Made by a program: the position numbers and the translations under genes
Part shown: positions 17,042 to 41,814 of the stretch, one piece after another
Position numbering within the stretch: position 1 is the first letter of the stretch
Layout: every line of letters begins with the position of its first letter
The notes under the pieces: model-generated
What the model saw: the letters and a program-made list of their open reading frames with translations, nothing else
Databases searched by the model: none
What the model was told of the DNA's origin: nothing
Assembly: GCA_015056415.1 (NCBI GenBank)
Contig: SVGJ01000005.1
Coordinates: 1,845-65,844 of the forward strand
DNA: 64,000 nucleotides
Source of the DNA: Clostridiales bacterium
GTDB lineage: Bacteria > Bacillota > Clostridia > Christensenellales > Aristaeellaceae
Reading direction: 5' to 3'

Positions 17042-17115
17042 CTGGGTGTGGCGCAGTTTGGTAGCGTGCTTGAATGGGGTTCAAGAGGCCGGAGGTTCGA
17101 ATCCTCTCACCCAGA
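17042..17115 (+). tRNA. tRNA-Pro (anticodon GGG)
   Basis: Hand-folded cloverleaf: acceptor CTGGGTG/CACCCAG, D arm GCGC/GCGT, anticodon stem CTTGA/TCAAG with loop ATGGGGT, T arm GGAGG-TTCGAAT-CCTCT; 74 nt; CCA not encoded. Confidence 0.9.
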
Positions 17116-17185
17116 CGCAACGGTTCCCATCCGAACTTTCTCCCCTTGCGAAAAGGCCGAGTAATGTGTGTGACCGTGGAACCTT

Positions 17186-17259: not shown

Positions 17260-17703
17260 TTATGCCCCCACATCGGGCGGCTCGTCATGTTTCTGCTTCA
17301 GCTGTTCCAGCGCATTCAGCACAACACGCGGGAACGGCACGCCGGCCAGCGAAAGATTCTCCAGGATGGAAAGTCCCTCATTGGCCACATAAAACCAAAT
17401 CATCGCCGTACGGAAGATAGCCGCCTCGCCACCCAAGGCTCTGTCCAGCAGCGCAGCCATCAGCACAACGAGGATCATCAGAGCCTTTTTGCCGATGCCT
17501 ACAAAGCCCACCTTGCTGTCCAGGTGGCCGGATTCGGTTTTCTGGCTCTTGCCCATCCATGCAACAATCAGGCCCGTAGCATAGTCGATCACCATGCAGG
17601 CCACCAGCACCATCATCATCGTATCGAAGCCTCCGAACAGGCCAGCGATCGCGCCGCCAATCGCCGCCAGCACCTTCATGATCTTGTCCCAGGTCGCAAT
17701 CAT
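17260..17703 (-). CDS. Phage holin (phage_holin_4 / TcdE-like family)
   Basis: About 147 aa with 3 TM segments; MVIDYATGL...GLSILENL signature; directly downstream of the endolysin. Confidence 0.8.
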   Translation of the reverse strand: MIATWDKIMKVLAAIGGAIAGLFGGFDTMMMVLVACMVIDYATGLIVAWMGKSQKTESGHLDSKVGFVGIGKKALMILVVLMAALLDRALGGEAAIFRTAMIWFYVANEGLSILENLSLAGVPFPRVVLNALEQLKQKHDEPPDVGA

Positions 17704-17725
17704 TCCCTTCTCCTCCTTTCCCGCA

Positions 17726-17986
17726 TCAATCCGGCAACATGATCTTCTGCTTGTCGATCTTCTCGTACACATCCAGATAGATCTCGCCCTTGTCGCCGTT
17801 GAGCGTAACTTCAAAGAGGAGCTTGTCCCGCAGGGGCGTGGCCAGAATCACCTTCTGATTCTGGAGCGTCTTGCATTGCCACACCACAAAAACATCCTGC
17901 CACCCTTCCGGGGGCTTGCGATTGTGGTTGGCATACCAGCCCCACACCGCTTTCTTCGCCGTCACCATGAAATCATAGGTACTCAT
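17726..17986 (-). CDS. Hypothetical phage protein (lysis-cassette associated)
   Basis: 86-aa ORF between endolysin and holin, same strand, tight spacing. Confidence 0.55.
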   Translation of the reverse strand: MSTYDFMVTAKKAVWGWYANHNRKPPEGWQDVFVVWQCKTLQNQKVILATPLRDKLLFEVTLNGDKGEIYLDVYEKIDKQKIMLPD

Positions 17987-17998: not shown

Positions 17999-18745
17999 CT
18001 ACATCAATTCAGCCCAGGTAAGCGGGCCTACAACGCCATCGACTTCCAGGCCATGCGTCGCCTGGTAGGTCTTCACACACTCTTCGGTCATCGGGCCGAA
18101 TACGCCGTCCAAATCCAGCGTATAACCGATAGCCACCAGGATCCGCTGCAGCTTCACCACCGCGTCGCCCCTGCTGCCGCGACGAACGGTCTCCGGGATC
18201 TCAAACGCCGCGCTGTTCTTCGGCTCATCCTCCACAGCAACCGGCTGATCTTCATCCCCGCCGTCGAGGATCGCCTGAACTTTCTCGCCATAATCCAGCA
18301 GCTTACACAGCCCCACCTGATTCCACCCGCCATTCCGGATGGTTTTTCCTTCAAAGGTGCTGTCAGCGACCTTCCCACGGCTGGCGGATGCGTGTACCGC
18401 GCCCAGGGTTTCCCCGGTATATACGCCAACGTGCTCCGCGTTGCCCAGGCCATCCCGGTAGCCGCGTGCCACCTCACCGCCGTTATCCGATACGATGTAG
18501 AGCCATGCGCCCACCGGGATGCAGCCGAATTTCTTCTTACACTCCTCAGGCGTACCCTTCCACGCCATATCGCGCCACATATGGTTGCTGCCTCTCCAGT
18601 TCGCCCTGATGCCGATCTGGCGTAGGCAGTATTCCATCATCCCTTGGCAATCCATGCCGCCCAGCGTATCACCGCCGCGCGTGTAGGGGATGTGCTTGTC
18701 AGGCAGCCTCACCGCCTCCTGCGCAAACATTTCGCTGGTGTTCAT
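17999..18745 (-). CDS. Endolysin: NlpC/P60-type peptidase plus C-terminal PG_binding_1 domain
   Basis: GGMDCQGMMEYC catalytic Cys context and a downstream His; C-terminal GDAVVKLQRIL...LDGVFGPMT...VDGVVGPLTW repeat; AAGGAGG RBS before ATG 18745. Confidence 0.8.
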   Translation of the reverse strand: MNTSEMFAQEAVRLPDKHIPYTRGGDTLGGMDCQGMMEYCLRQIGIRANWRGSNHMWRDMAWKGTPEECKKKFGCIPVGAWLYIVSDNGGEVARGYRDGLGNAEHVGVYTGETLGAVHASASRGKVADSTFEGKTIRNGGWNQVGLCKLLDYGEKVQAILDGGDEDQPVAVEDEPKNSAAFEIPETVRRGSRGDAVVKLQRILVAIGYTLDLDGVFGPMTEECVKTYQATHGLEVDGVVGPLTWAELM

Positions 18746-18783
18746 GCCCTGCTCACCTCCTTTGCGCTCATGGTAAAGGAAAA

Positions 18784-18807
18784 GCGCGCGGGTGTAGACC
18801 CACGCGC
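18784..18807 (-). promoter_or_regulatory. Hairpin carrying the conserved GTGGGTCTACA motif (site A), upstream of the lysis genes
   Basis: GCGCGTGGGT-CTAC-ACCCGCGCGC followed by TTTT on the minus strand; motif shared with sites at 33962-33972 and 41793-41803. Confidence 0.6.
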
Positions 18808-18813
18808 CCTGTA

Positions 18814-21800
18814 TTATTTTTTGAACCAACTGTCAATCGTCTGCTGGCTGTATCCCAAGGCCAGCATGGCCTTTTTCACTTTGGCTTCGTCCACATTCTC
18901 CTTTCCTACGCAGTATTTTTTCACATAGCTTTCAATGGCAGCGTTGGTCTCTTGCTGACCATGCGCTTTATACATAGCGGCACGAATCTTCACGGCACTC
19001 TTTCCGTCGCCATCCTTGATCAGTTTGTGCAGCTGATCGCTGGCATAGGAACCCGAAAGACCGCTCGTCCATTCATGGAGGTCATCATCTGTAATGCCAA
19101 CACCCGCTCCCCGCATCATGGCAGCAGCTTCCCTGGCCGTTTGTGTATCACCATTCCAGATAGCTTCACAATAGGCTTTGCGGTAGCTGGTCGTTACCTT
19201 GGTGCGCAGATCCTTGTCGGTCGTGCCGTTTTCGCGCATCTGGTCAACGGCAGCTTTCAGCTCCTCCGGCGTGGCAGCAGCGTTGTACTCCTGATTCATC
19301 ATGAATTTCACCGGATCATCGTCAACATCGGTGCGCTGCAATTCTCCAGCCACATCCGCGCCTGTTCCCGGCTCCGTTTCTTCCTGCGGCAAAAGCTCCT
19401 TGGCCTCGCTGATCACCATACTACTGATGGCCCTCATGCCAATGCCTTTCTCCTGGAGCGTTGTCACCGCTTCGTTGTAGGCGTCCATATTACCCTCCAC
19501 CAGCGCAGCTGCCGCTTTGGGAATCAGTTCTTCAGCCGCCCTGAGTCTGGTCTTGAAGCCGGTGGTCAAGCCTTTGCTGGTCGCACCCGTCGCAATGGCC
19601 GCATTTGCAGCCGCCTCGTAGTTTTCATACATTCCGCCATCTTCAAAATATGCAGTCAGCATCAGATCGTAGTAGATATCCGTATTCTGCTTACGCTTGT
19701 CACCCGGTTGTTTTGCATATACATAGTTCTTCTGCGCGGCCTGCAGCCTGGTTTCAAAAGGCAACTCCTTATCCCATGCCGATCCGGCCAGGGATTCACG
19801 CTCCACGTATTCATACACAGCCATACCTGCGGATTTCACATCGCGCCACAGGTTGCCAAAGCCGATGCCCAAGGCGCTGCTGGAGCCTTGCAGCATCTTA
19901 TACATGGCTTTCTCCCAGTTCTCCAGCGTAGATTCTTTCTCCCCGCTGATGATCTGGGTCATGTACTTTCCACCTGTGATCAGGTTTCCGATCCAGCCGG
20001 TGGTCAGGTCGCTGCCGCCACCGAAACTGCTCAGCGCATCGCTGATGGCGTTGGTGTAGATCGTACCAATACCCAGGATGTTGTCCGCAAACGCGCCCGG
20101 CATAGCATCAAGCCACTTATCCCAGCCGGTGCGGACGCCGACAATGTTCCCCTCTTCGTCTTTCTTCTCGTTGTCGCGGTCTCGCAGCGCCGTTATCACA
20201 GATTTCAGCGCAGCTGTCACGGCGGAGGACACCACAATGGATCCAACCGTCCGTCCCGTGGTTTTCAACGCCCTGGTCATGGCAGCACGGCCCTTTCCCT
20301 TTGCCTCGCCGATGTCCCACAGCGCACGGTACACCATATTGTAGGTAGACAGAGGCTCCGACATGAAAGCCATGAAGTTCTTCATCATGCCCTTCTCCGC
20401 CGCCCACTCCGCTCGCTGGAAGATGCTGTCCACCACCTGCGTGTTGTCGATCACATCGGTAGCACGCTCGGCGCACAGCTGGAAAAACTCTTCGCTGCCT
20501 ACCTTCACATCCGGATGCGTGTCGGCAGTTTCAGCCTTCACCGCTTCCCAGATCCGCGCCCAGGTCATCTTGTCGCCAACCTCTGCCAGCTTGCCGCCCG
20601 CATCGTTGATCTTGTTCCTGGTGGTATTCTGCGCACGCTGATACATACCCTGGCTCATGTTGGTGTCAAAGTAACCCCAGCCCTTCTCCACGGCAATGGG
20701 AGCGTACTTTTCCATCTCCGCATAGGAGGCGTTAAAGGATCTGTGTCCGTCGCTTTTCCCGTGGAACGCTGCCTTCATGCTGCCCAGCATGAAGTATTTC
20801 GGATCGATCATGGCCATGGCGCGGGATGCGCTGCCCATCTGCTGGATAGCCACCGATAGGTTGAAGGTCACCGCAGCGCCCTTCGCTCTGCTCATGAAGC
20901 CACCCAGCCAGCTCTCGCCCATCTCATTGCGGCTGTTGCCATTCAGCCTCCGCAGGAAGTTCATGATGTAATCCGTGGTCTGTTTGCCGTATGCGCGGTT
21001 CATCACAGCTTTCACGCCTTCGCCCTCGCCCTTGTAGTTCATCAGGCGGGTCATATCCTCAATGGGAAGCACAAAGGCGTTGTAGTCGCTCATCTTCTCC
21101 ACGTGCTGGCACCAGATTTCTGTAAAGGGCTTGATCTCCAGCGGATTGGACGCCTTGTCGGTCAGCGCCTTGGTGAAACTGCCAGTTTTGATTCGGCTGT
21201 CCTGGGCGGTGGCAGGCTCCACCTTCACATAGTTCTTGTTGACGCTGAACGGGATGTAGTACTCCTCATGGAATTTCTCCACGCCGTACAGTTCCAGCGT
21301 CACCTCGTTACCCCAATCCGCACACGTGCCGGAAAGGTATTCCACCATGTGGTCTACATACTCCCTCTGCTGCTGGGTCAGGCTGTTGGTGATGGTCTGG
21401 ATATCCTTCGCCGTCAGGATCACAGGTCGCATGCTGCTGCCCTTTGCCGCATTGGCCAGGGTGAATCCGCCGGCGGTCAGGTGCTGCGTGCCCACCATCT
21501 GCTCACGCCGTGCCGTGGCATACAGCGTCATCATCTCCTGATCGGTCAACTTCATCCTGGCTCCGCTTTCAAAGGTAATCTCCTGCGCCTTGTCGCGCTT
21601 GCTTTTCGTTCCCTCCTTGCGGATGCTCTCATGCTGGTCATACTTATCCAGCGCCTCTTCCAGGTAGTTTGCAGCTTCCTCCACATGGCGGATGTGCTGC
21701 CCCTCCGCGTTGCGCAGGGCTTTCCATACCGGCTCCATGGCCGTACCCTTGAATTGGTGGAATGCCGTCACAGGTTTGATCAGGCCCTGCTGCAAGCCTT

Positions 21801-24800
21801 TGCTGAACCACTCCCGCACCGGCCCCTGCACGGTATGCTCGCGGCGCATGTGCATGGTTGTCAGCAGATCGTCGCCCGTCTCCTGCAAGCTCTCCCGGCG
21901 ATTCTGCATGAACATCCTGTCCTCATTCACAATCGCCGCTGCGTATCCGGAGATGATATTCCGCAGGGCCTGCATCTCCTTCATATTCAGCTCGCCGGCT
22001 TTCTTCCCGTCCGCATCCCTGGCCAGCAGTTCAAAGTCGTATACCAGGTCGCCGTTATAGAACGCCGCCAGCGGCCCTGTCCCGCCGTTCTCGTCGGGCA
22101 GGTTCAGCTTGGTGTATTCCTCCTGCGCACGGTTCAGCATGGCAGCCGTCAGCGGACGATTCGTGCCGCCCTCCAGCTTGCCCTCAAAGTCAACCGCCCG
22201 CAGCAGTTCCAGCACCGCATTGTGCATACTCTGGGGGATGAATGCTCCGCTCTTGGGCGTTTCCAGCTTCTTCAGCAGCTGGCCCTTCTTGCGGATGATC
22301 TCGCCCTTCACCTGCTTGTAATCCTGGTTCTGCTTGCGCCTGTACGCCTCCGAAACACGCTTCTCGCGCATCTCTTCTACCCTTCTGGCCGCATTCCGCA
22401 TTCCATGCTTCTGCTCCATGATGGTCGCTCTCGCATCGGCCAGCTGATCCAGCAGCCTGTCCACCGTGGGGTCTTTCGCTCCGGAATAGTCCTCCGCTTT
22501 CAGATACTCCTGATAGATCTCCGTCGCCAGTCCGCTGGCCACCTGGCCAATATCCGCGCTGAACGGATTATCATACTTGATCTCCGTTCTGTGCAGCATA
22601 TCGATCACCTGCTGCACCATGTCGCCCTCGCTGGCGTCTTCGGTGAAATACTGCGGGTATTCAGCCACCAGCTCATCCCACACCATGTCCAGCGTGGTTA
22701 CACCGCGCCCATTCTGGGCTGGCACATTCCACTTGCCGAATACCGCCCGCCGGAAGTCACGAGCCGTGCCATAGATGTTCTCCGCTTCCTGCCATTGCGT
22801 ATCCGTCAGGCCAATGCGGTGCTTTCGGAATCTCTCACGCAGATCCTTGCTGCTGTCATACGCCTCACGGTCTGCCACCTGCGATTTCACGATCATGTCC
22901 ATCGCAATATTGCCCATCATCTCCATGGCGGCTTCGCTCTGCCTGGTATCGGTAGCCTGCTGCATGGCCGCGAACGCTCTGCTCATGTTCTCCGTCAGCG
23001 TGCTGAGCGGCACGGTCGAGGAGTACTTCTTCTTCAGCCCGCTGGCTACCCTGCGCACAGTCTTTTCGTCCATGGCCCGCCCGCTGTATTCCTTCAGCTT
23101 CGTATTCAGGCCCCGCACCAGGTCGCGCAGCTCCCGGTTTTCCTCCAGCAGCACCTCCATTTCCGGGTTGAAGGTGTCCACATCTTTCAGGGAATAGCGG
23201 ATGTCAGACTCGGAAGTATCAAACCGTTTCGAAAGCGGAATCAGTTCACCATTGTCATCATAAGTCGCAGGATCGGCATATTTCACCTGGCTCGATTTCA
23301 GCGCGAGAATGACATTGCTCTTCTCCCCAGTATTCTGATTATCCCAGGTTGTCCAGAACCCATCAATGCCCGTGGTCGGTGTCAACATCTTCTCATAGAA
23401 GTTTTCAGCCGTCGCATAGTCTCGAATCCCCATAGCCACCATAACTTCTTGAATGATGTCCATGTCGTTATCATTCATCTGGAGCAGCTGGCTTGCTGCA
23501 CTTCGGTAGTGCGCTGACATACTGGGGCTTCTATACGTTTCCACATAGTTGCTGATCCAGGTATCTGGTAGCGCATCCTTCATCGTGTCGTATCCGTCAT
23601 CCTCCATCATGCGCTTGGCTTCAGCCTTGCAAGTAGCCTCTATCAGCTTGGTGAGCTGCGGAAGCGTAAGCGTCTTTTTCCAGCTCGTCGCGGGCTTGGT
23701 GATATTGGCATAGGCGCCAATCTGGCGCTGTCCATACGCACTCGTTACAGACTGGGAATCAGACAGGTAAATCCCGTATCCTTCTGCCGTACCATTCACG
23801 CCGCCCTGCTTGCTGGTGTCAAACACATTGAAGTCTGCTTTAGTTCCGTGGTACACTTTCAGCAGTTTACCATTCTTCCCTCTGATCTTGCTCTCACGGA
23901 ATTGCTTTTCAGCCGCTTCATCTACCATGCGCTGGGCGGCATTCATGTCATTGGCCGCCACCGCTTTCTGGTAATCATCATCCGAAAGGGAGAATTTGTT
24001 CTTGCCTTTCTTTGTCTCGTCTGCTATACTGTTCTTAGCAGAGTTGTTACGTGTATTTGCGCCTCTCTCCTGAGAGGAATTGCGTCCACGGGTGTCTTCT
24101 CTGCTTTTTTCATTATCTTCAAATGTGAAGGCAGACCCGTCAGGCATAACAATTCTATGGGTTTTGTACAGATTGCGTCCGAGCAATTTCACAACCACAC
24201 CCACATTTCCTTTAACTCCATTGATGACAACAGGTGCAGCGAAAGTCACCGTATCATAAGGCCGTTCTTTATGCCCCTTATGTCGCTGGATTTCTACACC
24301 TCTTTTTAGCACACGTGGAACAGCAAGCACTGCTGCAATATCTCCCGGTGTTTTCAGATACTCGATGCTCATATCAATCTGGTTCCTACCAATTTCGATT
24401 TTGCCAAATCCTTGCCGATCCACCCTGCCTCCATAAGGCTTCAGCATATCAATAGCCCAGCGGATTCTATTCGTTTTGTTTTCTTTTTCCATATTGGGTG
24501 CAGAAATGTTCGCCACAGGCTCCATCCGGTTAAGAATGTCCAGTTTTGCACGAATTTGATCCTTGATGTGTTCAACTTCTGAATCTTCCCCAGACAGAGA
24601 ATACTTCACCCCGCCATCGCTCTGCGCGGCGCTCCCACTCTCCCGCACCGCATTCACCTCGATCATCACCCGGTTGAAGTGCTCTGCGATCTGCTGGAGG
24701 GTTTCTTCGGTCTGCTCAAGCATAGCGCGTGCTTCGGCATTCTTGCCGCCCATGTTGCGCAGCATGGTGCGAATGTTGTTCAAAAAGCGCTTGATGAAGC

Positions 24801-27800
24801 CCAGCACCTTCTCGCCCAGGGTGGTGTGGTTCTCCATCAGGTCGCGCACATTCTCTTCGGTGGCCAGCACCTCCACCATGCTGTCCGCCACAATCTCCTC
24901 GATGGCCGCATCCCGGTCAAGCTCCTGGCCTGCCAGCCGCTTGTATTGGTCTTGCTTTTCCGCAATGCGGGTTTCCAGGTCATAGCCCTCCGTCGCTTGC
25001 AGCTTTTCCAGCACAAAGTTCTGCAGGGCTTCAGCGTCCCCACGCACATAATTGTTGCTCTGGCTGTGTTCCTTGATGTAATGCCAGCTCTCATGGCCCG
25101 CAGCGCGCAAAAGGTTTCCACCCTCCGCGTCCAGAGCGATCACCATCTGATTCGTGCCGTACTTATATACGCCGTTGAGCTTACCATTCTGCACCGATGC
25201 AGCCACACCCAGCTGTTCCATCCCTTCCGTCTGATCCTGGAAGCTGTCCACAATGATATACTGCGTGCCGTACTTCCTGCCCACCTGATCCAGCACCGCC
25301 ATCTGCGTCGCCTGGCTGCTGGTCAGCTTGGAGCGCGTCACCAGGTTCACCGCGCCGGTATGGCTCTCCGTCACTTCCGTGGGCAGCGCGGTCACCGTCT
25401 TGGCAACCGCACTCGACACATCTTCGTCCATCTGCAGCTGCGTCGTTTCCTTCGCGGCAGATTTCTGCCCTGCCTCATACGCCAGCTGCTGGATCTGATC
25501 CGGCAGCGCCTTGGCCCACACATTCTCCGTGCCGATCAGTTCACGGTTGTTCCGGCCGGCAGCATATTCCGCCGCAAAGCCCTTCGCATAGTTGCTGATG
25601 GGCGCATTGCTCTTCTCATATCCGGCCAGAAACCGCCTCGCCACATCCGCATCGGCATAGGATGTGGCATATCCATATGCCTGCCGCTGCTCCTCGGTGG
25701 CAAACTCCACCTCATTCAGCGGCACAGCGGTTTCCACGCCATCCTTGATCACGTTCACCTTGGCTTCGGCTCCGCTGGTGTCCACTCCGGCCACCACCAC
25801 CTGCTCGCCGCCCATCACGGCGGGCGCCTTAAACACAGCGTGGTTCTGCTGCTCCACCTGCTTCTCCTGTTCAGCCTCGATCTGCGCATAGGCCTCCTCC
25901 ACCACAGCTTCGTCCATCTCGCGCACACCATGCTGCATTTCCAGGGCAGTCTGCACCAGCTCCTTGTCCAGGCCAGGCAGCTCCCTGGTGATCTCCTCCG
26001 CCTGCGCACGGGCCGTCTGCGCACCAAGAGCATAGCCGCCGGTCGCCATCACACTCTCTGAGGCGCCGCCCACCAGGAACGTTTCGCCCAGAGATTGAAC
26101 AAAGCTCCAGTCGGCTTCCCGAATGGCATCATTCATGCCCATGCCCTTATCCATGTTCGCTTTGATCGTCTGCACACGGTTGCTGTTTTCGCCCATCAGA
26201 TAGCGGTCAACAGCCTCTTCCACCAGGCCGCTGCTGGTTTCCTCCATACCGCCGGAGAAGAAACTCTTCGCTGCCGTTTTCAGCATATCGCCATATGTTC
26301 CCGCCGATTTGCCGGAAATGAAAGCATCGAACACATTGTCAAACTGGATCTTCTCCGTGATGAACTCCGTCGCCATGGTGATGCCGCCGCCAATGCCGGC
26401 TTCCCGCGCCGTTGCGCCGCTTTCCAACATTTCCATTGACTTGGCTCCCATGCCCGAGAGGCCCATGATGCCAGCTGCAAGTGTGCTTTTGCCACCGGAA
26501 GCAGCCGAGGACATCAGGTTATCGCCAATGCCGGTCGCAGTCTTATAGGCAAACTTGCCCAGATTACTGTCGATGTTCTCCTCAACCGTCCCGCGAACGG
26601 TGTTGATCGATCTTGTGGCGTCAAATTCATCCCTGTACGGATTAGCATCTGCGCCAATAAGCGCACTCGTCCCGGCATACAGGCCTCCAAGGCTCTGCAT
26701 CGGCGATTGCAAAACCGAAATAATCGAACTGCCAACAGGTGCTTCTTCCGCCAATTCCCTCAGGTTCTCATCATCCTGCATCGTTTTGCGGTACTGCGAC
26801 CTCAAATCCAACACCTTATACTTATATGCCTTTGCGCTCTCCGGCCCTTCCATCTTATACTTGTAGTTGTAGATTGCCCGCTCCAGGTCGGTCAGGGTCT
26901 TGTAGCGTGCTTGCCTCTGCATGGCATTCGCAGCATATTCGGGCATTTTCGACGTTTGCAGTCTTTCGCCGTTGACTTCCAGATAGTCTTCATCAGTGAT
27001 CGACATATCCCGCTGGGACATCACAGCAAAATCCGCATTAGCCATCACGCTCAAATCCGTCAGCGCCTGAAGGTCAGCCTCCAGCCATCCAATGCGCTCC
27101 TCAACCTCTTCAATAGTGCGCTTCTTTGCGCCGGAGGTTTTCAGCACGTTCAGGTCAGCCTTCAGCTCTTTCAGCTGGCTCTCCGTCTGATCCCAACTGT
27201 ATTGCCAATACAGCGACCACTCGCCCATCCTCCCCTGGTCAATCATCTCGGCAGCCGAATTCTCCACCGCCATCACCAATTCGCTGGCTTTGCCCTTGTA
27301 GCGCTCCGCCCTCTCATTCTGCATAGAGCCGTATCCACCTTCAACGGCCCAGGCGTTCTCATCCATAATGGCCTTGTTCTTTTCCAGCGCCGCATTGATC
27401 TCCTCTCTGCTCGGCGTTTGGCCGTATGTCAAAAGCCATTGCTGCCGCTTCGTAAGTTCCTGACCGGCAGCCCGGGCCGCATACGCTGCTTCAACTTCGT
27501 CCAGGGATTCAGACATTCCCAGATAGTTCTCATACTCTGTTTCCGCCTGAGAATAAGCACCTCGCGCTTCATCCCACTTGGCGCGTCGCGCTTCCTCGCT
27601 GTTCTCGTCATACCAGCCCGCCACCGCTTGCGTCTGCTCCGGCGTTGCAGGCCCTGAGGTGTCCGGCAGGACAGGTTTGCCCGATTCGGCTTTCTTCTTC
27701 TCCGCAGCGTCCTTTGCAAGCCCGATCTTCGTTTGCGCAGACACAAAGGATCGCCGTCTGTCCAAGACCTCCTGACTCTTCGCAATATATCCGTTCAGCT

Positions 27801-28344
27801 CGTCCCCAACCGGTGCATTATACGCTTTCACCTTCTCCGCCCATGTCATCTTCGGCTGCTCTTGGGCAGGCTGTTCTTTCCCGGTGCTGGTCTGCTGGGT
27901 AACAGGCTGCTCCTTTTCGGTGCTGGTCTTCTGAGCCGTATTGATCTTTGGAATCCAAGGCTGCTGCGTCTTGGCAGCAGCCTTGGGCTGGGTGTTGTGG
28001 ATCTTCGTTGCAGGCGCTTCCACGGCCGCCTGGTTTGCACCAGATCGGTTTTCTGTCTCCTGCTTCACCTTGGCCGTCCGCAAGCCTTCCTTGGCTTCCT
28101 TCCGGCGTTCATATTCGCTCTTGCTGGCTACGTATTTGCCAACAGAAGTCATCGTGCGCTCCCGGTTTGCCTGCTTCGCCTTGGCCGTCCGCAAACCTTC
28201 CTTGGCCTCCTTCCGGCGTTCGTAATCGCTCTTGCTGGCTGCATATTGGCCAACAGAAGCCATCGTGCGCTCCCGGTTTGCCTGCTTCGCCTGTTCTTCC
28301 TTTTCCCGCTCCAGATCGGTCTTTTTCTTGGTTTCGGTAGCCAT
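18814..28344 (-). CDS. Giant multi-domain virion-module protein (polyvalent-protein-like; zincin HExxH module, nuclease-like module, ART-like module, Gly-rich hydrophobic segments)
   Basis: Uninterrupted 3176-codon ORF; HESWH at nt 25081-25095; YHGT...GYGIYLSD at about nt 23750-23853; located between structural and lysis genes. Confidence 0.85.
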   Translation of the reverse strand: MATETKKKTDLEREKEEQAKQANRERTMASVGQYAASKSDYERRKEAKEGLRTAKAKQANRERTMTSVGKYVASKSEYERRKEAKEGLRTAKVKQETENRSGANQAAVEAPATKIHNTQPKAAAKTQQPWIPKINTAQKTSTEKEQPVTQQTSTGKEQPAQEQPKMTWAEKVKAYNAPVGDELNGYIAKSQEVLDRRRSFVSAQTKIGLAKDAAEKKKAESGKPVLPDTSGPATPEQTQAVAGWYDENSEEARRAKWDEARGAYSQAETEYENYLGMSESLDEVEAAYAARAAGQELTKRQQWLLTYGQTPSREEINAALEKNKAIMDENAWAVEGGYGSMQNERAERYKGKASELVMAVENSAAEMIDQGRMGEWSLYWQYSWDQTESQLKELKADLNVLKTSGAKKRTIEEVEERIGWLEADLQALTDLSVMANADFAVMSQRDMSITDEDYLEVNGERLQTSKMPEYAANAMQRQARYKTLTDLERAIYNYKYKMEGPESAKAYKYKVLDLRSQYRKTMQDDENLRELAEEAPVGSSIISVLQSPMQSLGGLYAGTSALIGADANPYRDEFDATRSINTVRGTVEENIDSNLGKFAYKTATGIGDNLMSSAASGGKSTLAAGIMGLSGMGAKSMEMLESGATAREAGIGGGITMATEFITEKIQFDNVFDAFISGKSAGTYGDMLKTAAKSFFSGGMEETSSGLVEEAVDRYLMGENSNRVQTIKANMDKGMGMNDAIREADWSFVQSLGETFLVGGASESVMATGGYALGAQTARAQAEEITRELPGLDKELVQTALEMQHGVREMDEAVVEEAYAQIEAEQEKQVEQQNHAVFKAPAVMGGEQVVVAGVDTSGAEAKVNVIKDGVETAVPLNEVEFATEEQRQAYGYATSYADADVARRFLAGYEKSNAPISNYAKGFAAEYAAGRNNRELIGTENVWAKALPDQIQQLAYEAGQKSAAKETTQLQMDEDVSSAVAKTVTALPTEVTESHTGAVNLVTRSKLTSSQATQMAVLDQVGRKYGTQYIIVDSFQDQTEGMEQLGVAASVQNGKLNGVYKYGTNQMVIALDAEGGNLLRAAGHESWHYIKEHSQSNNYVRGDAEALQNFVLEKLQATEGYDLETRIAEKQDQYKRLAGQELDRDAAIEEIVADSMVEVLATEENVRDLMENHTTLGEKVLGFIKRFLNNIRTMLRNMGGKNAEARAMLEQTEETLQQIAEHFNRVMIEVNAVRESGSAAQSDGGVKYSLSGEDSEVEHIKDQIRAKLDILNRMEPVANISAPNMEKENKTNRIRWAIDMLKPYGGRVDRQGFGKIEIGRNQIDMSIEYLKTPGDIAAVLAVPRVLKRGVEIQRHKGHKERPYDTVTFAAPVVINGVKGNVGVVVKLLGRNLYKTHRIVMPDGSAFTFEDNEKSREDTRGRNSSQERGANTRNNSAKNSIADETKKGKNKFSLSDDDYQKAVAANDMNAAQRMVDEAAEKQFRESKIRGKNGKLLKVYHGTKADFNVFDTSKQGGVNGTAEGYGIYLSDSQSVTSAYGQRQIGAYANITKPATSWKKTLTLPQLTKLIEATCKAEAKRMMEDDGYDTMKDALPDTWISNYVETYRSPSMSAHYRSAASQLLQMNDNDMDIIQEVMVAMGIRDYATAENFYEKMLTPTTGIDGFWTTWDNQNTGEKSNVILALKSSQVKYADPATYDDNGELIPLSKRFDTSESDIRYSLKDVDTFNPEMEVLLEENRELRDLVRGLNTKLKEYSGRAMDEKTVRRVASGLKKKYSSTVPLSTLTENMSRAFAAMQQATDTRQSEAAMEMMGNIAMDMIVKSQVADREAYDSSKDLRERFRKHRIGLTDTQWQEAENIYGTARDFRRAVFGKWNVPAQNGRGVTTLDMVWDELVAEYPQYFTEDASEGDMVQQVIDMLHRTEIKYDNPFSADIGQVASGLATEIYQEYLKAEDYSGAKDPTVDRLLDQLADARATIMEQKHGMRNAARRVEEMREKRVSEAYRRKQNQDYKQVKGEIIRKKGQLLKKLETPKSGAFIPQSMHNAVLELLRAVDFEGKLEGGTNRPLTAAMLNRAQEEYTKLNLPDENGGTGPLAAFYNGDLVYDFELLARDADGKKAGELNMKEMQALRNIISGYAAAIVNEDRMFMQNRRESLQETGDDLLTTMHMRREHTVQGPVREWFSKGLQQGLIKPVTAFHQFKGTAMEPVWKALRNAEGQHIRHVEEAANYLEEALDKYDQHESIRKEGTKSKRDKAQEITFESGARMKLTDQEMMTLYATARREQMVGTQHLTAGGFTLANAAKGSSMRPVILTAKDIQTITNSLTQQQREYVDHMVEYLSGTCADWGNEVTLELYGVEKFHEEYYIPFSVNKNYVKVEPATAQDSRIKTGSFTKALTDKASNPLEIKPFTEIWCQHVEKMSDYNAFVLPIEDMTRLMNYKGEGEGVKAVMNRAYGKQTTDYIMNFLRRLNGNSRNEMGESWLGGFMSRAKGAAVTFNLSVAIQQMGSASRAMAMIDPKYFMLGSMKAAFHGKSDGHRSFNASYAEMEKYAPIAVEKGWGYFDTNMSQGMYQRAQNTTRNKINDAGGKLAEVGDKMTWARIWEAVKAETADTHPDVKVGSEEFFQLCAERATDVIDNTQVVDSIFQRAEWAAEKGMMKNFMAFMSEPLSTYNMVYRALWDIGEAKGKGRAAMTRALKTTGRTVGSIVVSSAVTAALKSVITALRDRDNEKKDEEGNIVGVRTGWDKWLDAMPGAFADNILGIGTIYTNAISDALSSFGGGSDLTTGWIGNLITGGKYMTQIISGEKESTLENWEKAMYKMLQGSSSALGIGFGNLWRDVKSAGMAVYEYVERESLAGSAWDKELPFETRLQAAQKNYVYAKQPGDKRKQNTDIYYDLMLTAYFEDGGMYENYEAAANAAIATGATSKGLTTGFKTRLRAAEELIPKAAAALVEGNMDAYNEAVTTLQEKGIGMRAISSMVISEAKELLPQEETEPGTGADVAGELQRTDVDDDPVKFMMNQEYNAAATPEELKAAVDQMRENGTTDKDLRTKVTTSYRKAYCEAIWNGDTQTAREAAAMMRGAGVGITDDDLHEWTSGLSGSYASDQLHKLIKDGDGKSAVKIRAAMYKAHGQQETNAAIESYVKKYCVGKENVDEAKVKKAMLALGYSQQTIDSWFKK
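28069..28290 (-). repeat. 2 x 111-bp in-frame tandem duplication at the 5' end of the giant gene
   Basis: aa 19-55 and 56-92 (AKQANRERTM.SVG.Y.ASKS.YERRKEAKEGLRTAK) nearly identical; the DNA offset of 111 nt is visible (28085 vs 28196). Confidence 0.9.
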
Positions 28345-28356: not shown

Positions 28357-29133
28357 TTAATTATCGTCTTCCCATAGGTCGTTCCAGTATTTGTACTGCG
28401 TCCAGTACCGCTCCTGCTCCGTGTCATAGTCGCTCACATCATCGCGGTATTGCTGATATTCGGTGGACTGTCCGTCCCTCAGCGAGTTCAGTCGGTTGTA
28501 GTAGTCCGCCCTGTCGCTCTCAAAATTACTGCGCAACGCACTTTCCGCCGTCTGATAAGCGGAAAGGTTGCTCCGCATGTTGTCGCCCTCGGTGTCGTAG
28601 GCGCTTTTCGCCAGAGAATACAGCTCAATGGCGTCATCATTCAACTGGTTCAGATGTTGCTGATACGCCTGGCTGCCCGCCGTACTGGCATAGCTGGAGC
28701 CATACCCGCCCGTCAGCGCAGCAGCCTGGCCCATAGTGTCCTGCATGGCCTGCTTACCACTGGACATGTACTTGGCCGCCAGCTGCTGGTACAGCGGATC
28801 CTGCGACATGTTGTACTGGAAAGCCTGCCGGTTGTTCAGCTTGTTCAGCAGGCTGTCGATGTTCTGGCCATACTTGCTGGTATACGTTCCCGGGCCATCC
28901 GTTTCCATCTTCTTGATCCTGGATGCATACGTATCCGTATAGGTCGGCTTTGCCGCGTTCAGCTTGGATTTGGCCGTGCTGATATCCTTGGTGTACCTGC
29001 TTGTGGAGCTGCTGCTCCCGTTTCCGCTTCCACTTCCGGTTGTGGCCTGCGTTTCTTCCGTTGTCGTTTCGGTCGGATTCGTCAGCACCGAAGCATCTGC
29101 ATCGGCCAGCGGTTTCCTTGCTACCATTGCCAT
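28357..29133 (-). CDS. Phage structural/internal protein, unknown function
   Basis: 258 aa, Ser/Thr/Gly-rich N-terminus and Gln/Tyr-rich body; between a large structural ORF and the giant gene. Confidence 0.6.
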   Translation of the reverse strand: MAMVARKPLADADASVLTNPTETTTEETQATTGSGSGNGSSSSTSRYTKDISTAKSKLNAAKPTYTDTYASRIKKMETDGPGTYTSKYGQNIDSLLNKLNNRQAFQYNMSQDPLYQQLAAKYMSSGKQAMQDTMGQAAALTGGYGSSYASTAGSQAYQQHLNQLNDDAIELYSLAKSAYDTEGDNMRSNLSAYQTAESALRSNFESDRADYYNRLNSLRDGQSTEYQQYRDDVSDYDTEQERYWTQYKYWNDLWEDDN

Positions 29134-29139: not shown

Positions 29140-30891
29140 TTACCTCCCATATTCGCTCCCAGCCTCCACCAAGCGGCTCATGCCCAGCAGTTTCATCTCA
29201 CCCACACCGGCGATCTCCACCTGCAGCCTGTCACACCGCTTGGGGTAGATCGGCAGCGTGTGCCGTCTCTTGGCAGCTCCTGTAATACTCATGGCGTCCT
29301 GCCACGCTTCGTTATCCTTGCGGATTCTCACGTGGGCCTGGGCATTCTCTCCCAGTTCCAGCAAAAGCTGTACCTTGCTCACGTGCTTGTTGTTCGGCCC
29401 GGAGGAAAGCATTTCGCCCGTCCTCAGACACCAGTCGATGTCCTCGTCGTTTTCTTCGGTGGCCTCCACCTTGTAATCGCTCCCCAACATGAAGAAATCC
29501 TTGCTGTACTCGCCCGCCTTCAGCGCCCACACCTCGCCCTCTGCCGTCAGCATAAAGGTCTCGGTCTGGCATTGGGCAAAGGCCAGCACATGCACATCAT
29601 CCTCACGCATCCACAGCCCGCTGGTTGTGTCATAGGTCAGCAGATGCCACGCGCCAGCCTTGTCCTGCATGGAGATATACAGCCTGCGGTCATTGGCGCC
29701 GGCTACCGCATTGGTATACTTCTCCTTGCCCAGCCGGCCGGAGATGCTCGTCACCTGTGTGCCATCGTATACGCATACATCGAACACGGATTTGAAGTAC
29801 ATCAGCTCGTTCACCCGCACCAGCGAGGCGCCGCTACCTCGTTCCGCACCTCTGAAGTGCTCCACCGTTGTCTGGTAGTTGGACGGCTGTGTACCGTAGA
29901 TCTTGTGGATGCAATTCTCCTTCGTAAAGATCACGCTGCCGTTCATCGCCGCCGCGCCGGTGAAGTCGCCAGGAGAACCGATGGTCAGCGCATAGCTGTC
30001 CGTCGAGATTCCCGCATATTTCCGCCAGTTGGTCGGATCGCCCAGCGCACAGGAGTAGATCTCATGGTTCTCGCTGGAGCATCCCCACAGCCTGTTGTTC
30101 AGCTCCACAACATAGTCCATGTCCGGGCAGCTGCGACGCACCGTCACAACCTCCGTTTGGCTCTTCACTTCGCCGATGATCCCCGTGTACACGATCTGAT
30201 CATCCGCCGCGCTGCTGATGATCCAATCCCCGTCCAGCCCTTCCCCCAGGATGCCGGATACCGTAACCGCATCCTCCGCTTTCAGCCCCTTGCCGATTCC
30301 CTTGGCCTTCACGCACACATAGGTGGTGGCTTGCTCCACCCACATCCCGGTGGAATCCGCCCAGGTCTTCATCACGGCTTTATCGCCGGATGTGTCCAGC
30401 CACATCTGGCCTGCCGTGGGATTCTCCGGCGCCGTGGCCGATGCAGTATAGCTTCCGTATGCCGTTCCGTCAGCCTTGGCCAGCTCCACCGTCACCTGGC
30501 CCGTGGTCACATTCTTCTGCTCCATTTCGCTAAACGTGTACGTTTCCGTGTCAAAGATTTTCTTATCCGGAAAGATGCAGATCCGGCTGCCCATGGCCAC
30601 CATCTGCTTGAAGCTGTCTGCCACATCGCCATAATAGAAGCCGTTGTAGTAGAATTTCGTGCCATCCACAAAGCACAGCTTGTCGGTGGCTATCATGCCG
30701 TTGGGCTTATCCAGCCTGCCCACCAGCACACGCTTTTCCCTTCGGGCCACAATGGGCGCCAGCGCCGCGTCCATGTTCTTGGTGTACTCCCACTCGCCAT
30801 CAGAGAGCGTTCCGGTCAGGTTCAGGCCCTGCATATTCACCGCCACGCTCTGGCTGCGTCTCAAATTGTTCAGGTAAGGCAGCATCCTCAC
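29140..30891 (-). CDS. Large phage structural protein (putative tail/nozzle component)
   Basis: 583 aa, position downstream of capsid and adaptor-like genes; no motif recognised. Confidence 0.6.
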   Translation of the reverse strand: MRMLPYLNNLRRSQSVAVNMQGLNLTGTLSDGEWEYTKNMDAALAPIVARREKRVLVGRLDKPNGMIATDKLCFVDGTKFYYNGFYYGDVADSFKQMVAMGSRICIFPDKKIFDTETYTFSEMEQKNVTTGQVTVELAKADGTAYGSYTASATAPENPTAGQMWLDTSGDKAVMKTWADSTGMWVEQATTYVCVKAKGIGKGLKAEDAVTVSGILGEGLDGDWIISSAADDQIVYTGIIGEVKSQTEVVTVRRSCPDMDYVVELNNRLWGCSSENHEIYSCALGDPTNWRKYAGISTDSYALTIGSPGDFTGAAAMNGSVIFTKENCIHKIYGTQPSNYQTTVEHFRGAERGSGASLVRVNELMYFKSVFDVCVYDGTQVTSISGRLGKEKYTNAVAGANDRRLYISMQDKAGAWHLLTYDTTSGLWMREDDVHVLAFAQCQTETFMLTAEGEVWALKAGEYSKDFFMLGSDYKVEATEENDEDIDWCLRTGEMLSSGPNNKHVSKVQLLLELGENAQAHVRIRKDNEAWQDAMSITGAAKRRHTLPIYPKRCDRLQVEIAGVGEMKLLGMSRLVEAGSEYGR

Positions 30892-31307
30892 ACCCCCAGG
30901 TTCAGCGGGTCATCCCCGTGCCTCGCTCCATAGCCATACACCACATGGTCGATCACCGTGCGTAGCGGCTTGTGCGCCCTGTGGTAAGCCTTGCGGGCTT
31001 CCTGCCACTCCTCGTTGAACAGCATGGCCGAGTTGTTGTACCTGTCGATCTCCCCCAGCCGGTAATCGATCTTGCTGTACAAGTGGTGAATGTACACCTC
31101 GTCATACGGCGCAGGGATCAACAGCTCTGCCTCCACCCCCTCATCATAGGGTTCAGGCCTCTCCACATCCTCGCTGCCCTCATGGGTCAGGATCATCTGC
31201 TCATACCACTTGCTGTCCAGCTGCGACAGCCACCGCAGCATCTCCTCGCGGGTGGATTCCCCCGGCCGGTCACGCTCCACGCGCTTCAGCACTTCCAGCG
31301 TAGTCAC
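30888..31307 (-). CDS. Putative head-tail adaptor / head completion protein
   Basis: 139 aa, downstream of the capsid gene; ATGA-type overlap with the next gene. Confidence 0.5.
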   Translation of the reverse strand: MTTLEVLKRVERDRPGESTREEMLRWLSQLDSKWYEQMILTHEGSEDVERPEPYDEGVEAELLIPAPYDEVYIHHLYSKIDYRLGEIDRYNNSAMLFNEEWQEARKAYHRAHKPLRTVIDHVVYGYGARHGDDPLNLGV

Positions 31308-31388
31308 ATTTCTTCACTCCTTTATAGGAAAAGGAGCCGCCGCTTTTTCCAGCAGCGGCTCCCGCCGTACTTGCTCTGATATTGACCA

Positions 31389-31910
31389 TCAGCCGCCGTA
31401 GGGCTTGGTCTTTTCAGCCGTATTCTGTTCGTACTCGTCAACCAGGCGCATCATCATGGCCTCGGTCTGGCTGTCCTGCTTCTGGCTGGCAGCCACCACC
31501 TCCGCAATGTAGCGAGGTACTTCCACCGGGACGCCGCGCTTGATCAGCACCCGGCGTCCGTTCACGAACACAGCCACATCATCCTTGTAGCGCTCTTCAT
31601 CCTTGAAGAGCTGGATGGTCACCATCTCCATGGCGCGTGCACGTTTCTTTTCGGCCTCATCCTTCTCAGGATCCACCACAGGCTCATCAACCAGCGCAGC
31701 CCGTTCGGCAGCCTCCTGGGCTTTCTTGGCCTCCATCTGCTCAATCAGCTTGGTGGCCGCTTCCGCTGCGGCCACAGCCTTCTTGGCCGCCTTCTCGGCC
31801 GCAGACTTGGTATCAGCCTGGGCAGCCTCTTCAGCAGCTTCTCTGGCCTTCACAGCTTCAGCGCGGGCAGCTTCTTCCAGCTGCTCCACATTCATTTCCA
31901 TATGATCCAT
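31389..31910 (-). CDS. Phage protein with Ala/Glu/Lys-rich coiled-coil N-terminus (capsid-associated)
   Basis: 173 aa immediately after the major capsid gene. Confidence 0.55.
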   Translation of the reverse strand: MDHMEMNVEQLEEAARAEAVKAREAAEEAAQADTKSAAEKAAKKAVAAAEAATKLIEQMEAKKAQEAAERAALVDEPVVDPEKDEAEKKRARAMEMVTIQLFKDEERYKDDVAVFVNGRRVLIKRGVPVEVPRYIAEVVAASQKQDSQTEAMMMRLVDEYEQNTAEKTKPYGG

Positions 31911-31930: not shown

Positions 31931-32917
31931 TTAGTTGGCAGCCGCCATCTTGGAATAGGAGCTGGTGGTCTCAAGACGCACCATAGCTTCCTCATTCAGG
32001 CGCTGAGCGCCGTGGGTAGCCTTCCAGCCAATGGACGCACGCTGGTTCAGGGGATCCTCACCATAGCCCAGGGGCTTGATGATGTGCTGCAGGCCAGCGC
32101 CCTCCAGCTCGGTCACGCCGTAGGCATGACCGGCGATCATCATGGACATGAACACAGCCAGGCCATCGGGGCAGCCGTCGCCGGTGATGATCTTCGCCTC
32201 GGAGGTCTCCACCACGCGCACCTTGCCGATCTTGCCGACCTCATCCTGGTACAGGCGATCGCTGGTGTTGTGCTGCTGCCAATGCTTCCATTCGGGGTCA
32301 CGACGAATATCATAGGCCACATAGGGATGCACGATCAGCACATACCCGTCGCCGTCCTCAACATTGTCATTGTCGAAGGCGTCCAGCTCGGTAGCACCCT
32401 TCAGGATGAGATCCACCGTCATCTTGCTCTTAGCGGTCAGAGCGTCACGGGTCAGCACTTCCGTCTCAGTGCCATCGGCATCCACGCTGGGAGCATACAT
32501 CACATTGGTGCCGCCGCAAACGACCTCGCGGGTCAGGGTGTCCAGGGTGCGGCCAGCCTGAGATCCGAGCGCCTTGGTGCCCTGCACCACGATGTTGTCC
32601 AGCGCAGCCAGCTTGATGATGTCGCTGTAGCGGATCCAGTCGCCGTACTGCTTCACAGTACCCTTGATCGTGGATACTTCCAGCTTGTTGCCGGCAGGGG
32701 TCACGCCTTCGGTCAGGGGGGTAAGCGCCTTGGGCAGCTTGGAGAAGCGGCGCCACTCCATGCTCGTGCCGTTACCGGCGGGCAGGGGGTACTTGTCGCC
32801 ATACTTGTTGTACACAAGCTTGGGCTGGGTGGTATTCAGCAAGGTCTTAACGTAGTACTCTTTGATCTCCGGCGCCATCTCGGGAATCAGAGTGGTCTGG
32901 GTAGTGGTATTAGGCAT
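31931..32917 (-). CDS. Major capsid protein (N4-gp56 family-like, HK97 fold)
   Basis: 328 aa; MPNTTTQTTLIPE...EYYVKTLL...EWRRFSKLPKALTPLTEGVTP...YGDWIRYSD pattern recalled from this capsid family; preceded by a scaffold gene. Confidence 0.8.
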   Translation of the reverse strand: MPNTTTQTTLIPEMAPEIKEYYVKTLLNTTQPKLVYNKYGDKYPLPAGNGTSMEWRRFSKLPKALTPLTEGVTPAGNKLEVSTIKGTVKQYGDWIRYSDIIKLAALDNIVVQGTKALGSQAGRTLDTLTREVVCGGTNVMYAPSVDADGTETEVLTRDALTAKSKMTVDLILKGATELDAFDNDNVEDGDGYVLIVHPYVAYDIRRDPEWKHWQQHNTSDRLYQDEVGKIGKVRVVETSEAKIITGDGCPDGLAVFMSMMIAGHAYGVTELEGAGLQHIIKPLGYGEDPLNQRASIGWKATHGAQRLNEEAMVRLETTSSYSKMAAAN

Positions 32918-33886: not shown

Positions 33887-33953
33887 ATGTACCTCTTTCT
33901 CCGCACTCTCAGCGGGCTTGATCCTTCGATCTGGCCCCAGCATAAAGAAAAAG

Positions 33954-33975
33954 CCGGCGGGTGTAGACCCACCGG
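33954..33975 (-). promoter_or_regulatory. Hairpin carrying the conserved GTGGGTCTACA motif (site B), upstream of the scaffold/capsid genes
   Basis: CCGGTGGGT-CTAC-ACCCGCCGG then CTTTTTCTTT on the minus strand. Confidence 0.6.
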
Positions 33976-33990
33976 ACAAAACTTTTTTAC

Positions 33991-34179
33991 TCACTCTCCA
34001 CTTGTATAGCCGTACTTTGCCAGCACCGCCAGCACATCCTCGGAAAACAGCTTTTTCAGCTGTCCGGGCGGCAGCTCCAGCATGGCCTGCACCAGAACAT
34101 CCACATCTGCCGCTTTTTCATCCATGTCCCTGCGTTTCTGGTTAAACGCAAGCACACGCTTCTTCCAAGGGTTACTCAC
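33991..34179 (-). CDS. Hypothetical small phage protein
   Basis: 62-aa ORF overlapping the stop of the upstream gene. Confidence 0.45.
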   Translation of the reverse strand: MSNPWKKRVLAFNQKRRDMDEKAADVDVLVQAMLELPPGQLKKLFSEDVLAVLAKYGYTSGE

Positions 34180-41803: not shown

Positions 41804-41814
41804 CCGCAACACGC

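Follow-up and report, generated by a model that had tools for sequence, protein, structure and literature searches.

Introduction

Polyvalent proteins of phages and conjugative elements are an established class (Iyer, Burroughs, Anand, de Souza and Aravind 2017; PMC5512222). Here we describe a protein of 3176 amino acids (aa), hereafter the giant protein, encoded by a prophage on contig SVGJ01000005.1 of a Clostridiales metagenome-assembled genome (MAG). The stretch of DNA analyzed, referred to as the window, is 64,000 nucleotides long, and positions are given within it. An earlier reading of this DNA (the original prediction) had proposed a polyvalent protein that is packaged and ejected. Like the polyvalents of Iyer et al., the giant protein is a giant single chain that joins an H-Y-D ADP-ribosyltransferase (ART), an LPD3 domain and a zincin-like HExxH...E module; its gene lies beside prophage virion genes, and its relatives carry MuF_C, PBECR5 and LPD23. 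It differs from them in that about two-thirds of the chain falls in no Pfam family, and in its fixed scaffold–slot–scaffold order with a junction motif, [KR][YF]SL. In a word search, the text of PMC5512222 showed no mention of such a fixed order or of a linker or cleavage motif. Giant polyvalents that bring together ART, LPD and zincin-like modules and are encoded beside virion genes are already known, and the locus is not a new type of system. The fixed one-slot chassis, the abundant unannotated C-terminal core (C-core) and the junction motif seem not to have been described before.

Among individual phage proteins, gp50 of coliphage N4 is a virion RNA polymerase of ~3,500 aa, present in ~4 copies per virion, encapsidated and ejected (PMC13434306). 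The two proteins are alike in the placement of a podovirus gene past the capsid and ejection-protein genes, in a beads-on-a-string arrangement of domains and in an internal HExxH zincin-like region. However, the giant protein lacks an RNA polymerase module (no match to an RNA polymerase family in Pfam), and its HExxH region precedes the payload, whereas in N4 this region follows the RNA polymerase 'payload'. Neither the core nor the whole protein showed homology to gp50 by BLASTP and hhalign; in the hhalign comparison, made against a 13-sequence profile of the gp50 C-terminal region, the probability for the C-terminal domain was 0.5%. In phi24B, a temperate Stx podovirus, virion proteomics revealed the polyvalent protein gp47 (2811 aa), for which a role as an encapsidated ejection protein or conduit has been put forward, and the authors suggested a peptidoglycan role for its metallopeptidase domain (bioRxiv 10.64898/2026.04.10.717836). 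It differs from the giant protein in its LPD5, LPD1, LPD38 and MuF-C domains and in the Gram-negative host of the phage. Homology of the core to gp47 was not detectable either, the only match being a weak one to the zincin-like region.

Two ~41-kb prophages of Clostridium clostridioforme LM41, phi1 and phi4, are predicted podoviruses whose particles are released spontaneously (PMC11318856). The comparison uses their published description; PMC11318856 gives no domain dissection. Shared features are a gut Clostridia host and an 8-kb LPD3-like open reading frame (ORF), ~20% of the genome, that ends the late region. The 8-kb ORF is likely to encode a sibling of the giant protein. Alt of phage T4 is a single-domain protein that is targeted and processed by the T4 head protease system. 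This ADP-ribosyltransferase is carried in the phage head, is injected along with the DNA and modifies host proteins; it differs from the giant protein in its R-S-E active site and much smaller size, and is not counted as a genuine polyvalent (PMC5512222).

Class membership and enzyme-like domains of the giant protein

The gene is one ORF of 3,176 codons with an ATG start and no internal stop (Table 1). A Shine-Dalgarno-like AAGGGGG stands 6 nt upstream of the ATG, directly past the stop codon of the preceding gene. The size of the ORF is beyond chance expectation, and the long plus-strand ORFs inside the interval (e.g. 21103-23517, 804 aa) are antisense shadows of this GC-rich gene. Because the identical 3176-aa protein, labelled 'hypothetical protein' by NCBI, is recorded from 24 contigs, we regard the gene as real and recurrent. 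Coordinates, translation and neighboring genes all agree with the original description of an uninterrupted 9.5-kb ORF that occupies ~23% of the prophage and lies between virion and lysis genes.

Membership of the giant protein in the polyvalent class of Iyer, Aravind and co-workers is close to certain. In the Pfam test that had been proposed for the class, both ART-PolyVal and LPD3 were matched, the former well above its curated cutoff and the latter about at it. The chain holds several unrelated effector-type domains (ART-PolyVal, LPD3 and the zincin-like HExxH...E), and the gene lies beside the virion genes of a mobile element, in a late module where virion genes precede it and lysis genes come after it. 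PBECR, another family named for the same test, is absent from the giant protein; PBECR5 does occur at the equivalent position in relatives.

The more secure of the two Pfam matches is to ART-PolyVal (PF18760; cutoff 31.2 bits), which scores 55.7 bits when the segment is scanned and 47.6 bits for the full-length protein. The original prediction had recognized an ART-like core in the segment that starts KVYHGTKADF at aa 1496, and the family holds; the triad is H-Y-D, not the H-Y-E then suggested. In the 26 ART-bearing relatives, the corresponding columns retain H1499 in all 26, Y1526 (as Y or F) in 23 and D1661 in 24. These three residues make up an intact candidate catalytic triad, the His presumably on strand 1, the Tyr on strand 2 and the Asp on strand 5. 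An H-Y-D configuration is that of the polyvalent Tox-ART-HYD2 type (PMC5512222). The domain carries an insert of ~100 aa (aa ~1552-1653), and no relative of the ART segment was found among PDB sequences. A compact basic module further upstream, in which IEIGRNQIDM begins at aa 1316, had also been pointed out; Pfam now matches it marginally to LPD3 (PF18798, precomputed for the identical database protein), with 28.3 bits on a 251-aa segment and 24.9 on the whole protein, the cutoff being 27.

The giant protein has a single HExxH, located where the original prediction placed it (aa 1084-1088, AAGHESWHYIKEH; window 25081-25095), with E1150 as the candidate third ligand. In a 110-sequence family alignment, H1084 is conserved in 108 sequences, E1085 in 109, H1088 in 106 and E1150 in 106. 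HExxH plus a later Glu is the ligand pattern of polyvalent-protein metallopeptidases (PMC5512222). AlphaFold2 (AF2) predicts, with a predicted local distance difference test (pLDDT) score of ~76-88, the order helix, β-strands, HExxH helix, two inserted helices and E1150 helix, which agrees with the zincin core of PMC5512222 and puts both HExxH and E1150 on helices. When 12 homologous modules were searched, two matched the Pfam family MPTase-PolyVal (PF18818; best E 1.8e-5) and four matched DUF6782, a putative metallopeptidase family. The profile of the family also resembles, weakly, the HExxH regions of N4 gp50 (hhalign E 2.7e-4, probability 42%) and phi24B gp47 (domain E 6.4e-5); against PDB sequences it returned nothing meaningful, only designed helical bundles. 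On the strength of the alignment, the predicted topology, the Pfam matches of homologues and the likeness to N4 and phi24B, we treat the module as a zincin-like peptidase. This identity is transitive: the HExxH...E signature is nearly invariant in the family, and the module of the giant protein itself does not match MPTase-PolyVal.

Two conserved scaffolds around a variable slot

A word-indexed search returned 274 relatives, the best 120 of which are 2,182-4,708 aa long and in many cases encoded on contigs of ~40-45 kb. Judged by how the relatives cover it, the giant protein has five parts: a unique N-terminus (aa 1-~230), an N scaffold with the HExxH module (to ~1250), a poorly shared middle (~1250-1710), the core (~1710-2850) and, for the remainder, a variable tail. 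The core is present in 266 of 267 relatives and the HExxH module in 211 of 267, always upstream of the core and never downstream, at a distance of 121-1,627 aa (5th-95th percentile). Close relatives retain both scaffolds and differ in the middle slot. P0002 (55% identity in the N scaffold, 69% in core plus tail) has MuF_C and three ART stretches in the slot, and P0004 (53% and 75%) has PBECR5; the distant P0007 (24% and 26%) has LPD23 and LPD3. For further relatives, the database lists Pfam matches to RadC, DdrB-ParB, M23 peptidase, cytosine methylase and SNF2 helicase. The part of the giant protein that matches neither an LPD nor any other Pfam family, about two-thirds of the chain, consists of the N scaffold and the C-core.

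An exhaustive HMMER search with the core alone yielded 3,591 cluster representatives (50% identity) at E <= 0.001, 2,652 of them at E <= 1e-30. Among the best 150 of the 3,591, the match usually falls in the C-terminal part of proteins of 2,000-5,000 aa. The family is known only from metagenomes and prophages. Tblastn searches of 50,697 GenBank phage records, with most of the protein and with the best-conserved part of the core, found only MT838833, an unannotated 4.8-kb faecal fragment, and no relative in a cultured phage. A search of genome contigs with an alignment of closer relatives gave only four loci, all in Clostridia or Eubacteriales MAGs.

The C-terminal core

The core is the family-defining module. 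It is covered by 113 of the 119 relatives listed and matches PHROG 22978 with E 2.4e-157. About 19 of its residues are invariant, most of them polar, for example H2288, H2414, K2488, Q2502, D2591, Q2636, D2639, E2663 and R2721. An AF2 model from a 26-sequence alignment is all-helical (mean pLDDT 72.6, predicted template modeling score 0.60). Foldseek found no match to this model in the PDB at E <= 0.001, the core profile recovered only designed helical bundles among PDB sequences, and the whole giant protein gave nothing meaningful against the PDB by sequence. Pfam scans of 21 core-bearing members matched nothing apart from their cassettes, and NCBIfam matched nothing. Among BFVD structures, the core matches C-terminal pieces of many giants from uncultured phages (E down to 2e-44); their names follow the cassettes, such as 'PolyVal ADP-ribosyltransferase', 'Nuclease' and 'MuF C-terminal domain'. 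Past the core, the relatives have a tail with a median length of 272 aa. Given its constant presence, its constant position and its independence from the payload, the most economical inference is that the core serves packaging, ejection or translocation.

One hydrophobic helix in the core is conserved, with a family-mean hydropathy of 1.61 at its columns. The original prediction had noted two Gly/Ala-rich hydrophobic stretches and likened them to tape-measure and ejection proteins. Their composition was read correctly (Gly plus Ala, 32% at aa 601-700 and 23% at aa 2701-2800); only one 19-aa window in the protein, aa 2702-2720 with a Kyte-Doolittle value of 1.69, is hydrophobic enough to resemble a membrane helix, and the likeness to tape measures is weak. 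We rejected a tape-measure identity on several counts: the lack of a tape-measure match in Pfam or PHROG, the lack of tube, sheath and chaperone genes, the P22-like portal and the single hydrophobic segment.

The [KR][YF]SL motif at module junctions

The tetrapeptide [KR][YF]SL occurs three times in the giant protein, compared to 0.07 times expected from shuffles, and each occurrence lies at a module boundary (Table 1). Motif 1 falls in a linker of low confidence (AF2 pLDDT < 50), and both AF2 models are of low confidence at the motifs. S1718, in motif 3, is invariant in alignment A2. BLASTP homology to P0004 ends at aa 1250 and restarts at aa 1714, and homology to P0002 ends at aa 1238 and restarts at aa 1451. 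Across 211 relatives, the relaxed form [KR][YF]S[LIVMF] has a density of 1.34 per 1,000 aa in the slot versus 0.10 elsewhere (13-fold), and the slot value is 1.03 when the site at the core start is left out. The family consensus reads [DGN]-[IV]-[RK]-[FY]-S-[LIVM]-[KRS]-[DE] and is set within polar, acidic linkers. In 26 of the 27 instances in which an ART domain follows the motif, the motif stands 12-36 aa ahead of the domain. The three sites in the giant protein use different codons, indicating that the constraint acts on the peptide and ruling out a nucleotide-level recombination signal. Neither the remaining virion proteins of the prophage nor N4 gp50 and phi24B gp47 contain the motif. On these sequence patterns, we infer that the [KR][YF]SL sites are candidate cleavage sites of the metallopeptidase carried in cis.

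A Prp-type capsid-maturation protease was considered as the enzyme that would cut the motif and was rejected, as the prophage has no Prp-like gene, no Prp-type sites and no other virion protein with the motif. Such a system is found in the phage L004, which encodes the relative P0102. There (L004 2815-5388), a Prp-family cysteine protease gene adjoins the portal gene, and the scaffold-like and capsid proteins begin MENKLRLNLQLF/AGEG and MKNIFKHINLQLF/AEAG, where the slash marks the cut. These NLQLF/A sites represent the classic Prp/L27-type cleavage motif.

The N-terminal region

No relative aligns over aa 1-200. The repeat of 2 x 37 aa reported in the original prediction was found again by Tandem Repeats Finder as a 111-nt tandem repeat with 92% matches; its peptide, KQANRERTM.SVG.Y.ASKS.YERRKEAKEGLRTAK, is unique to the giant protein. 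Past the repeat is a low-complexity linker rich in Q, T, K and P (aa ~100-170, window 27850-28040), whose resemblance to N4 gp50, where a low-complexity linker spans aa ~912-952, is compositional only. The N scaffold is all-helical in the AF2 model, with pLDDT mostly 60-88, and includes a Gly/Ala/Ser-rich segment (aa ~560-720), in which the consensus of alignment A3 shows the family motif EGxEE..AN...D. It is followed by a small predicted β-barrel (model residues 391-426, pLDDT ~86-91), for which Foldseek gave SH3/Tudor matches below threshold only.

Table 1. Features of the giant gene and its neighbors in the window, all on the minus strand and listed in the order of transcription. Neighbors were named by PHROG and Pfam.
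Feature	Position	Strand	Basis or remark
Helicase-methylase	48368-50872	-	
DNA methyltransferase	46449-47999	-	
Rolling-circle-type replication initiator	42112-42996	-	
Small terminase (TerS)	41112-41846	-	
Large terminase (TerL)	39583-41115	-	
P22-like portal	37539-39569	-	
684-aa protein	35471-37525	-	weak VgrG-like β-helix matches
Fibre-like protein	34562-35458	-	
Probable scaffold	32972-33994	-	by position only; family without known function
Major capsid protein (MCP)	31931-32917	-	
Two small proteins	31389-31910 and 30888-31307	-	
583-aa 'internal virion protein'	29140-30891	-	phrog_511, E 2.3e-44
258-aa protein	28357-29133	-	no assigned function
Giant gene, whole (3176 aa)	18814..28344	-	ORF list and translation; stop codon 18814-18816
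Tandem repeat, 2.1 x 111 nt (2 x 37 aa), basic	28059..28292	-	Tandem Repeats Finder
Conserved helical N scaffold, aa ~230-840	25825..27657	-	coverage by relatives, AF2
Small predicted β-barrel, SH3/Tudor-like, aa ~840-875	25720..25827	-	AF2 strands
Zincin-like metallopeptidase module, aa 1025-1250	24595..25272	-	conservation, AF2
Junction motif 1, KYSL, aa 1247-1250 (GGVKYSLSGED)	24595..24606	-	boundary of zincin-like module and LPD3
LPD3 domain, payload module 1, aa 1292-1387	24184..24471	-	Pfam PF18798
Junction motif 2, KFSL, aa 1450-1453 (KNKFSLSDDD)	23986..23997	-	boundary of LPD3 and ART
ADP-ribosyltransferase domain, payload module 2, aa 1490-1691	23272..23877	-	Pfam PF18760
Junction motif 3, RYSL, aa 1716-1719 (SDIRYSLKDVD)	23188..23199	-	boundary of ART and C-core
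All-alpha C-terminal core, ~1,140 aa, aa 1711-2850	19795..23214	-	family-defining module
Single conserved hydrophobic helix, aa ~2699-2717	20194..20250	-	followed by an acidic stretch
Variable helical tail, aa 2851-3176	18817..19794	-	coverage by relatives falls past aa 2850
Endolysin	17999-18829	-	PHROG match
Holin	17260-17814	-	PHROG match

The prophage and its neighboring genes

The prophage spans ~40.8 kb, from about the tRNA-Pro gene (17042-17116) to a serine recombinase gene (56303-57880). Since host genes begin past both of these, we put the element at ~41 kb and the giant ORF at 23% of it. The tRNA-Pro(GGG) adjoins the holin end, and the large serine recombinase, with Resolvase, Recombinase and Zn-ribbon domains, stands at the opposite end. 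Host genes for a HAD hydrolase and an aldo/keto reductase flank the element at one end, and those for an FAD oxidoreductase and galactokinase flank it at the other. No tail-tube, sheath, tape-measure or chaperone gene appears among the neighbors named by PHROG and Pfam, and the absence of tube, sheath and tape-measure genes indicates a phage of the podovirus type. The prophage is that of a temperate, short-tailed phage with a P22-like portal, in the genome of a spore-forming gut Clostridia bacterium. The giant genes of relatives share this position and synteny on contigs of ~42-45 kb, and proteins of the same sizes occupy the place of the 583-aa and 258-aa genes in two relatives, L002 and L004. 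No minus-strand terminator-like site lies between the giant gene and its neighbors, including the lysis genes.

Several features of the surrounding genes deserve mention. The early region encodes a DNA methyltransferase of 516 aa and an 834-aa helicase with methyltransferase-like matches at its C-terminus; in the relatives P0052, P0101, P0102, P0113 and P0117, such methylase and helicase activities sit within the giant protein itself. The 684-aa protein has weak matches to VgrG/TssI (NCBIfam E 4.6e-09, below cutoff), DUF3540 and a beta-helical trimerisation domain and is probably a tail spike or needle, its position 5' of the capsid genes being unusual. This sub-cutoff VgrG-like match was the sole NCBIfam result for the giant protein and five neighbors, the giant protein and the other four neighbors matching nothing. 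A 173-aa gene comes next after the major capsid gene, and just 3' of it is a strong terminator-like hairpin (minus strand, 31332-31363), with a 13-bp stem, nine G-C pairs and a T-rich tail. The hairpin may be an attenuator that holds capsid transcripts above those of the downstream virion genes and the giant gene. As listed, the endolysin ORF begins with TTG at 18829 and shares 16 nt with the end of the giant gene; the true start may plausibly be an internal Met near residue 29 (MNTSEMF...). In the prophage L002, which encodes P0004, a reverse-transcriptase gene (RVT_1, 2114-3421) lies just 5' of the structural genes and is possibly part of a diversity-generating retroelement, and a Tad2-like gene of the anti-Thoeris family (21456-21707) is found immediately past the holin.

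Discussion

We consider it likely that the giant protein is a virion-carried, ejected polyvalent protein, in which the scaffolds deliver and in which LPD3 and ART are released by self-processing to act on host targets. Packaging and ejection are suggested by the gene order, by the precedents of N4 gp50 and phi24B gp47 and by the particle release of LM41 phi1 and phi4. According to this model, the protein would be made late, alongside the virion proteins, packed into the capsid by means of its conserved scaffolds and expelled with the DNA upon infection. Its own metallopeptidase would then cut the junction motifs to give about four pieces, namely aa 1-~1248, LPD3, ART, and core plus tail. The freed ART would modify a host target using NAD+, LPD3 would act on another, and together they would help the incoming genome to become established or to evade defence. 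The core, with its one hydrophobic helix, would serve packaging, ejection or envelope passage rather than an effector function.

A number of observations weigh against this model. The strict motif is absent from the slot in 85 of 211 relatives and precedes just 27 of 105 ART domains, and hence it is not a universal processing signal. N4 gp50 is packaged unprocessed (PMC5512222), which means that a zincin-like module does not imply cleavage. As the core is not detectably related to either gp50 or gp47, the analogies to N4 and phi24B are functional and not homologous. The HExxH module of the giant protein gave no match to PF18818 even at E <= 10, and Foldseek, given the 841-aa model of the N scaffold and zincin-like module, found no PDB match at E <= 0.001 and no significant match to a zincin. 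The LPD3 score for the whole protein is also marginal.

The alternatives differ in how much of the model they would replace. If the motif marks module boundaries but is not cut, serving, for instance, as a docking strand to which a partner or chaperone binds or being a remnant of a common linker that travels with exchanged cassettes, then the HExxH module would act on host proteins or on peptidoglycan, the latter being the role that the phi24B authors suggest for their metallopeptidase domain. We rate this as less likely than not, yet as a possibility to be taken seriously: the motif is missing in many relatives, homology breaks off at the motifs as exchange joints would predict, and gp50 combines a zincin-like module with packaging in unprocessed form. 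Cleavage, in turn, is favored by the differing codons of the three sites, which leave no nucleotide-level recombination signal, by the predicted disordered, acidic linkers around the motifs, typical of protease-accessible sites, by the absence of the motif from other virion proteins and by the absence here of a Prp system like that of L004.

Delivery itself could be understood differently. The giant protein might be mainly a structural ejection or channel protein, in the manner of T7 gp15/gp16, P22 gp7/gp16/gp20 or a tape measure, its helical scaffolds forming a conduit through the Gram-positive envelope and its enzymes being incidental. In favor of this, conserved helical scaffold that lacks any enzymatic signature makes up some 2,000 of the 3,176 residues, and the family as a whole keeps one hydrophobic helix. 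The gene also lies past that of the PHROG 'internal virion protein', ejection proteins are not otherwise evident in the phage, and a conduit is what has been proposed for gp47. Nevertheless, no tape-measure or ejection-protein family was matched in Pfam or PHROG, a single segment has the hydropathy of a membrane helix, tail-tube, sheath and chaperone genes are absent, and the enzymes look to be under selection, given the intact ART triad and invariant HExxH. A mainly structural role appears unlikely, and the idea of a conduit is partly compatible with an ejected, effector-carrying protein rather than exclusive of it. Much less probable still is a cytoplasmic late protein, or a prophage toxin or exclusion factor, that is never packaged and acts in the cell where it is made, perhaps through ADP-ribosylation of host targets in the course of lytic growth or through exclusion of superinfecting phages. 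Toxin systems also use ART and nuclease-type cassettes, and Iyer et al. raise the possibility that captured polyvalents target incoming elements (PMC5512222). Against this, the gene is tightly spaced between virion and lysis genes on the late strand, its position is kept in relatives, no adjoining immunity gene is evident, and 9.5 kb, or 23% of a genome limited by capsid size, is a high cost for an accessory outside the virion.

An ejected, self-processing protein also allows a broader and bolder reading, which we regard as rather unlikely in its full form: that of a self-processing 'payload chassis' on which short-tailed Clostridia phages of ~40 kb, as well as many uncultured phages, would rely. 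Here, the scaffolds would package and eject, the in-cis zincin would cut the motif in the form [DGN]-[IV]-[RK]-[FY]-S-[LIVM]-[KR]-[DE], and the slot would take any effector flanked by the motif, with the C-core as a new ejection or translocation machine. If this is true, the C-core, with more than 3,500 clusters, would move large proteins across the Gram-positive envelope.

Among phage products, polyvalent proteins are believed to encounter the defences of the host first, and almost none has been studied experimentally. The locus described here is tractable, as it offers a clear ART, a conserved candidate protease and three sharp candidate cleavage sites, along with close relatives that vary only in the payload between the same two scaffolds. 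Chassis, C-core and motif together yield a testable hypothesis. The C-core is among the more abundant unannotated phage domains, and a role in packaging, ejection or envelope passage would be worth knowing. Should the motif prove to be a real processing signal, it would provide a rule for locating payload boundaries, and with them new anti-defence modules, in thousands of metagenomic giants.

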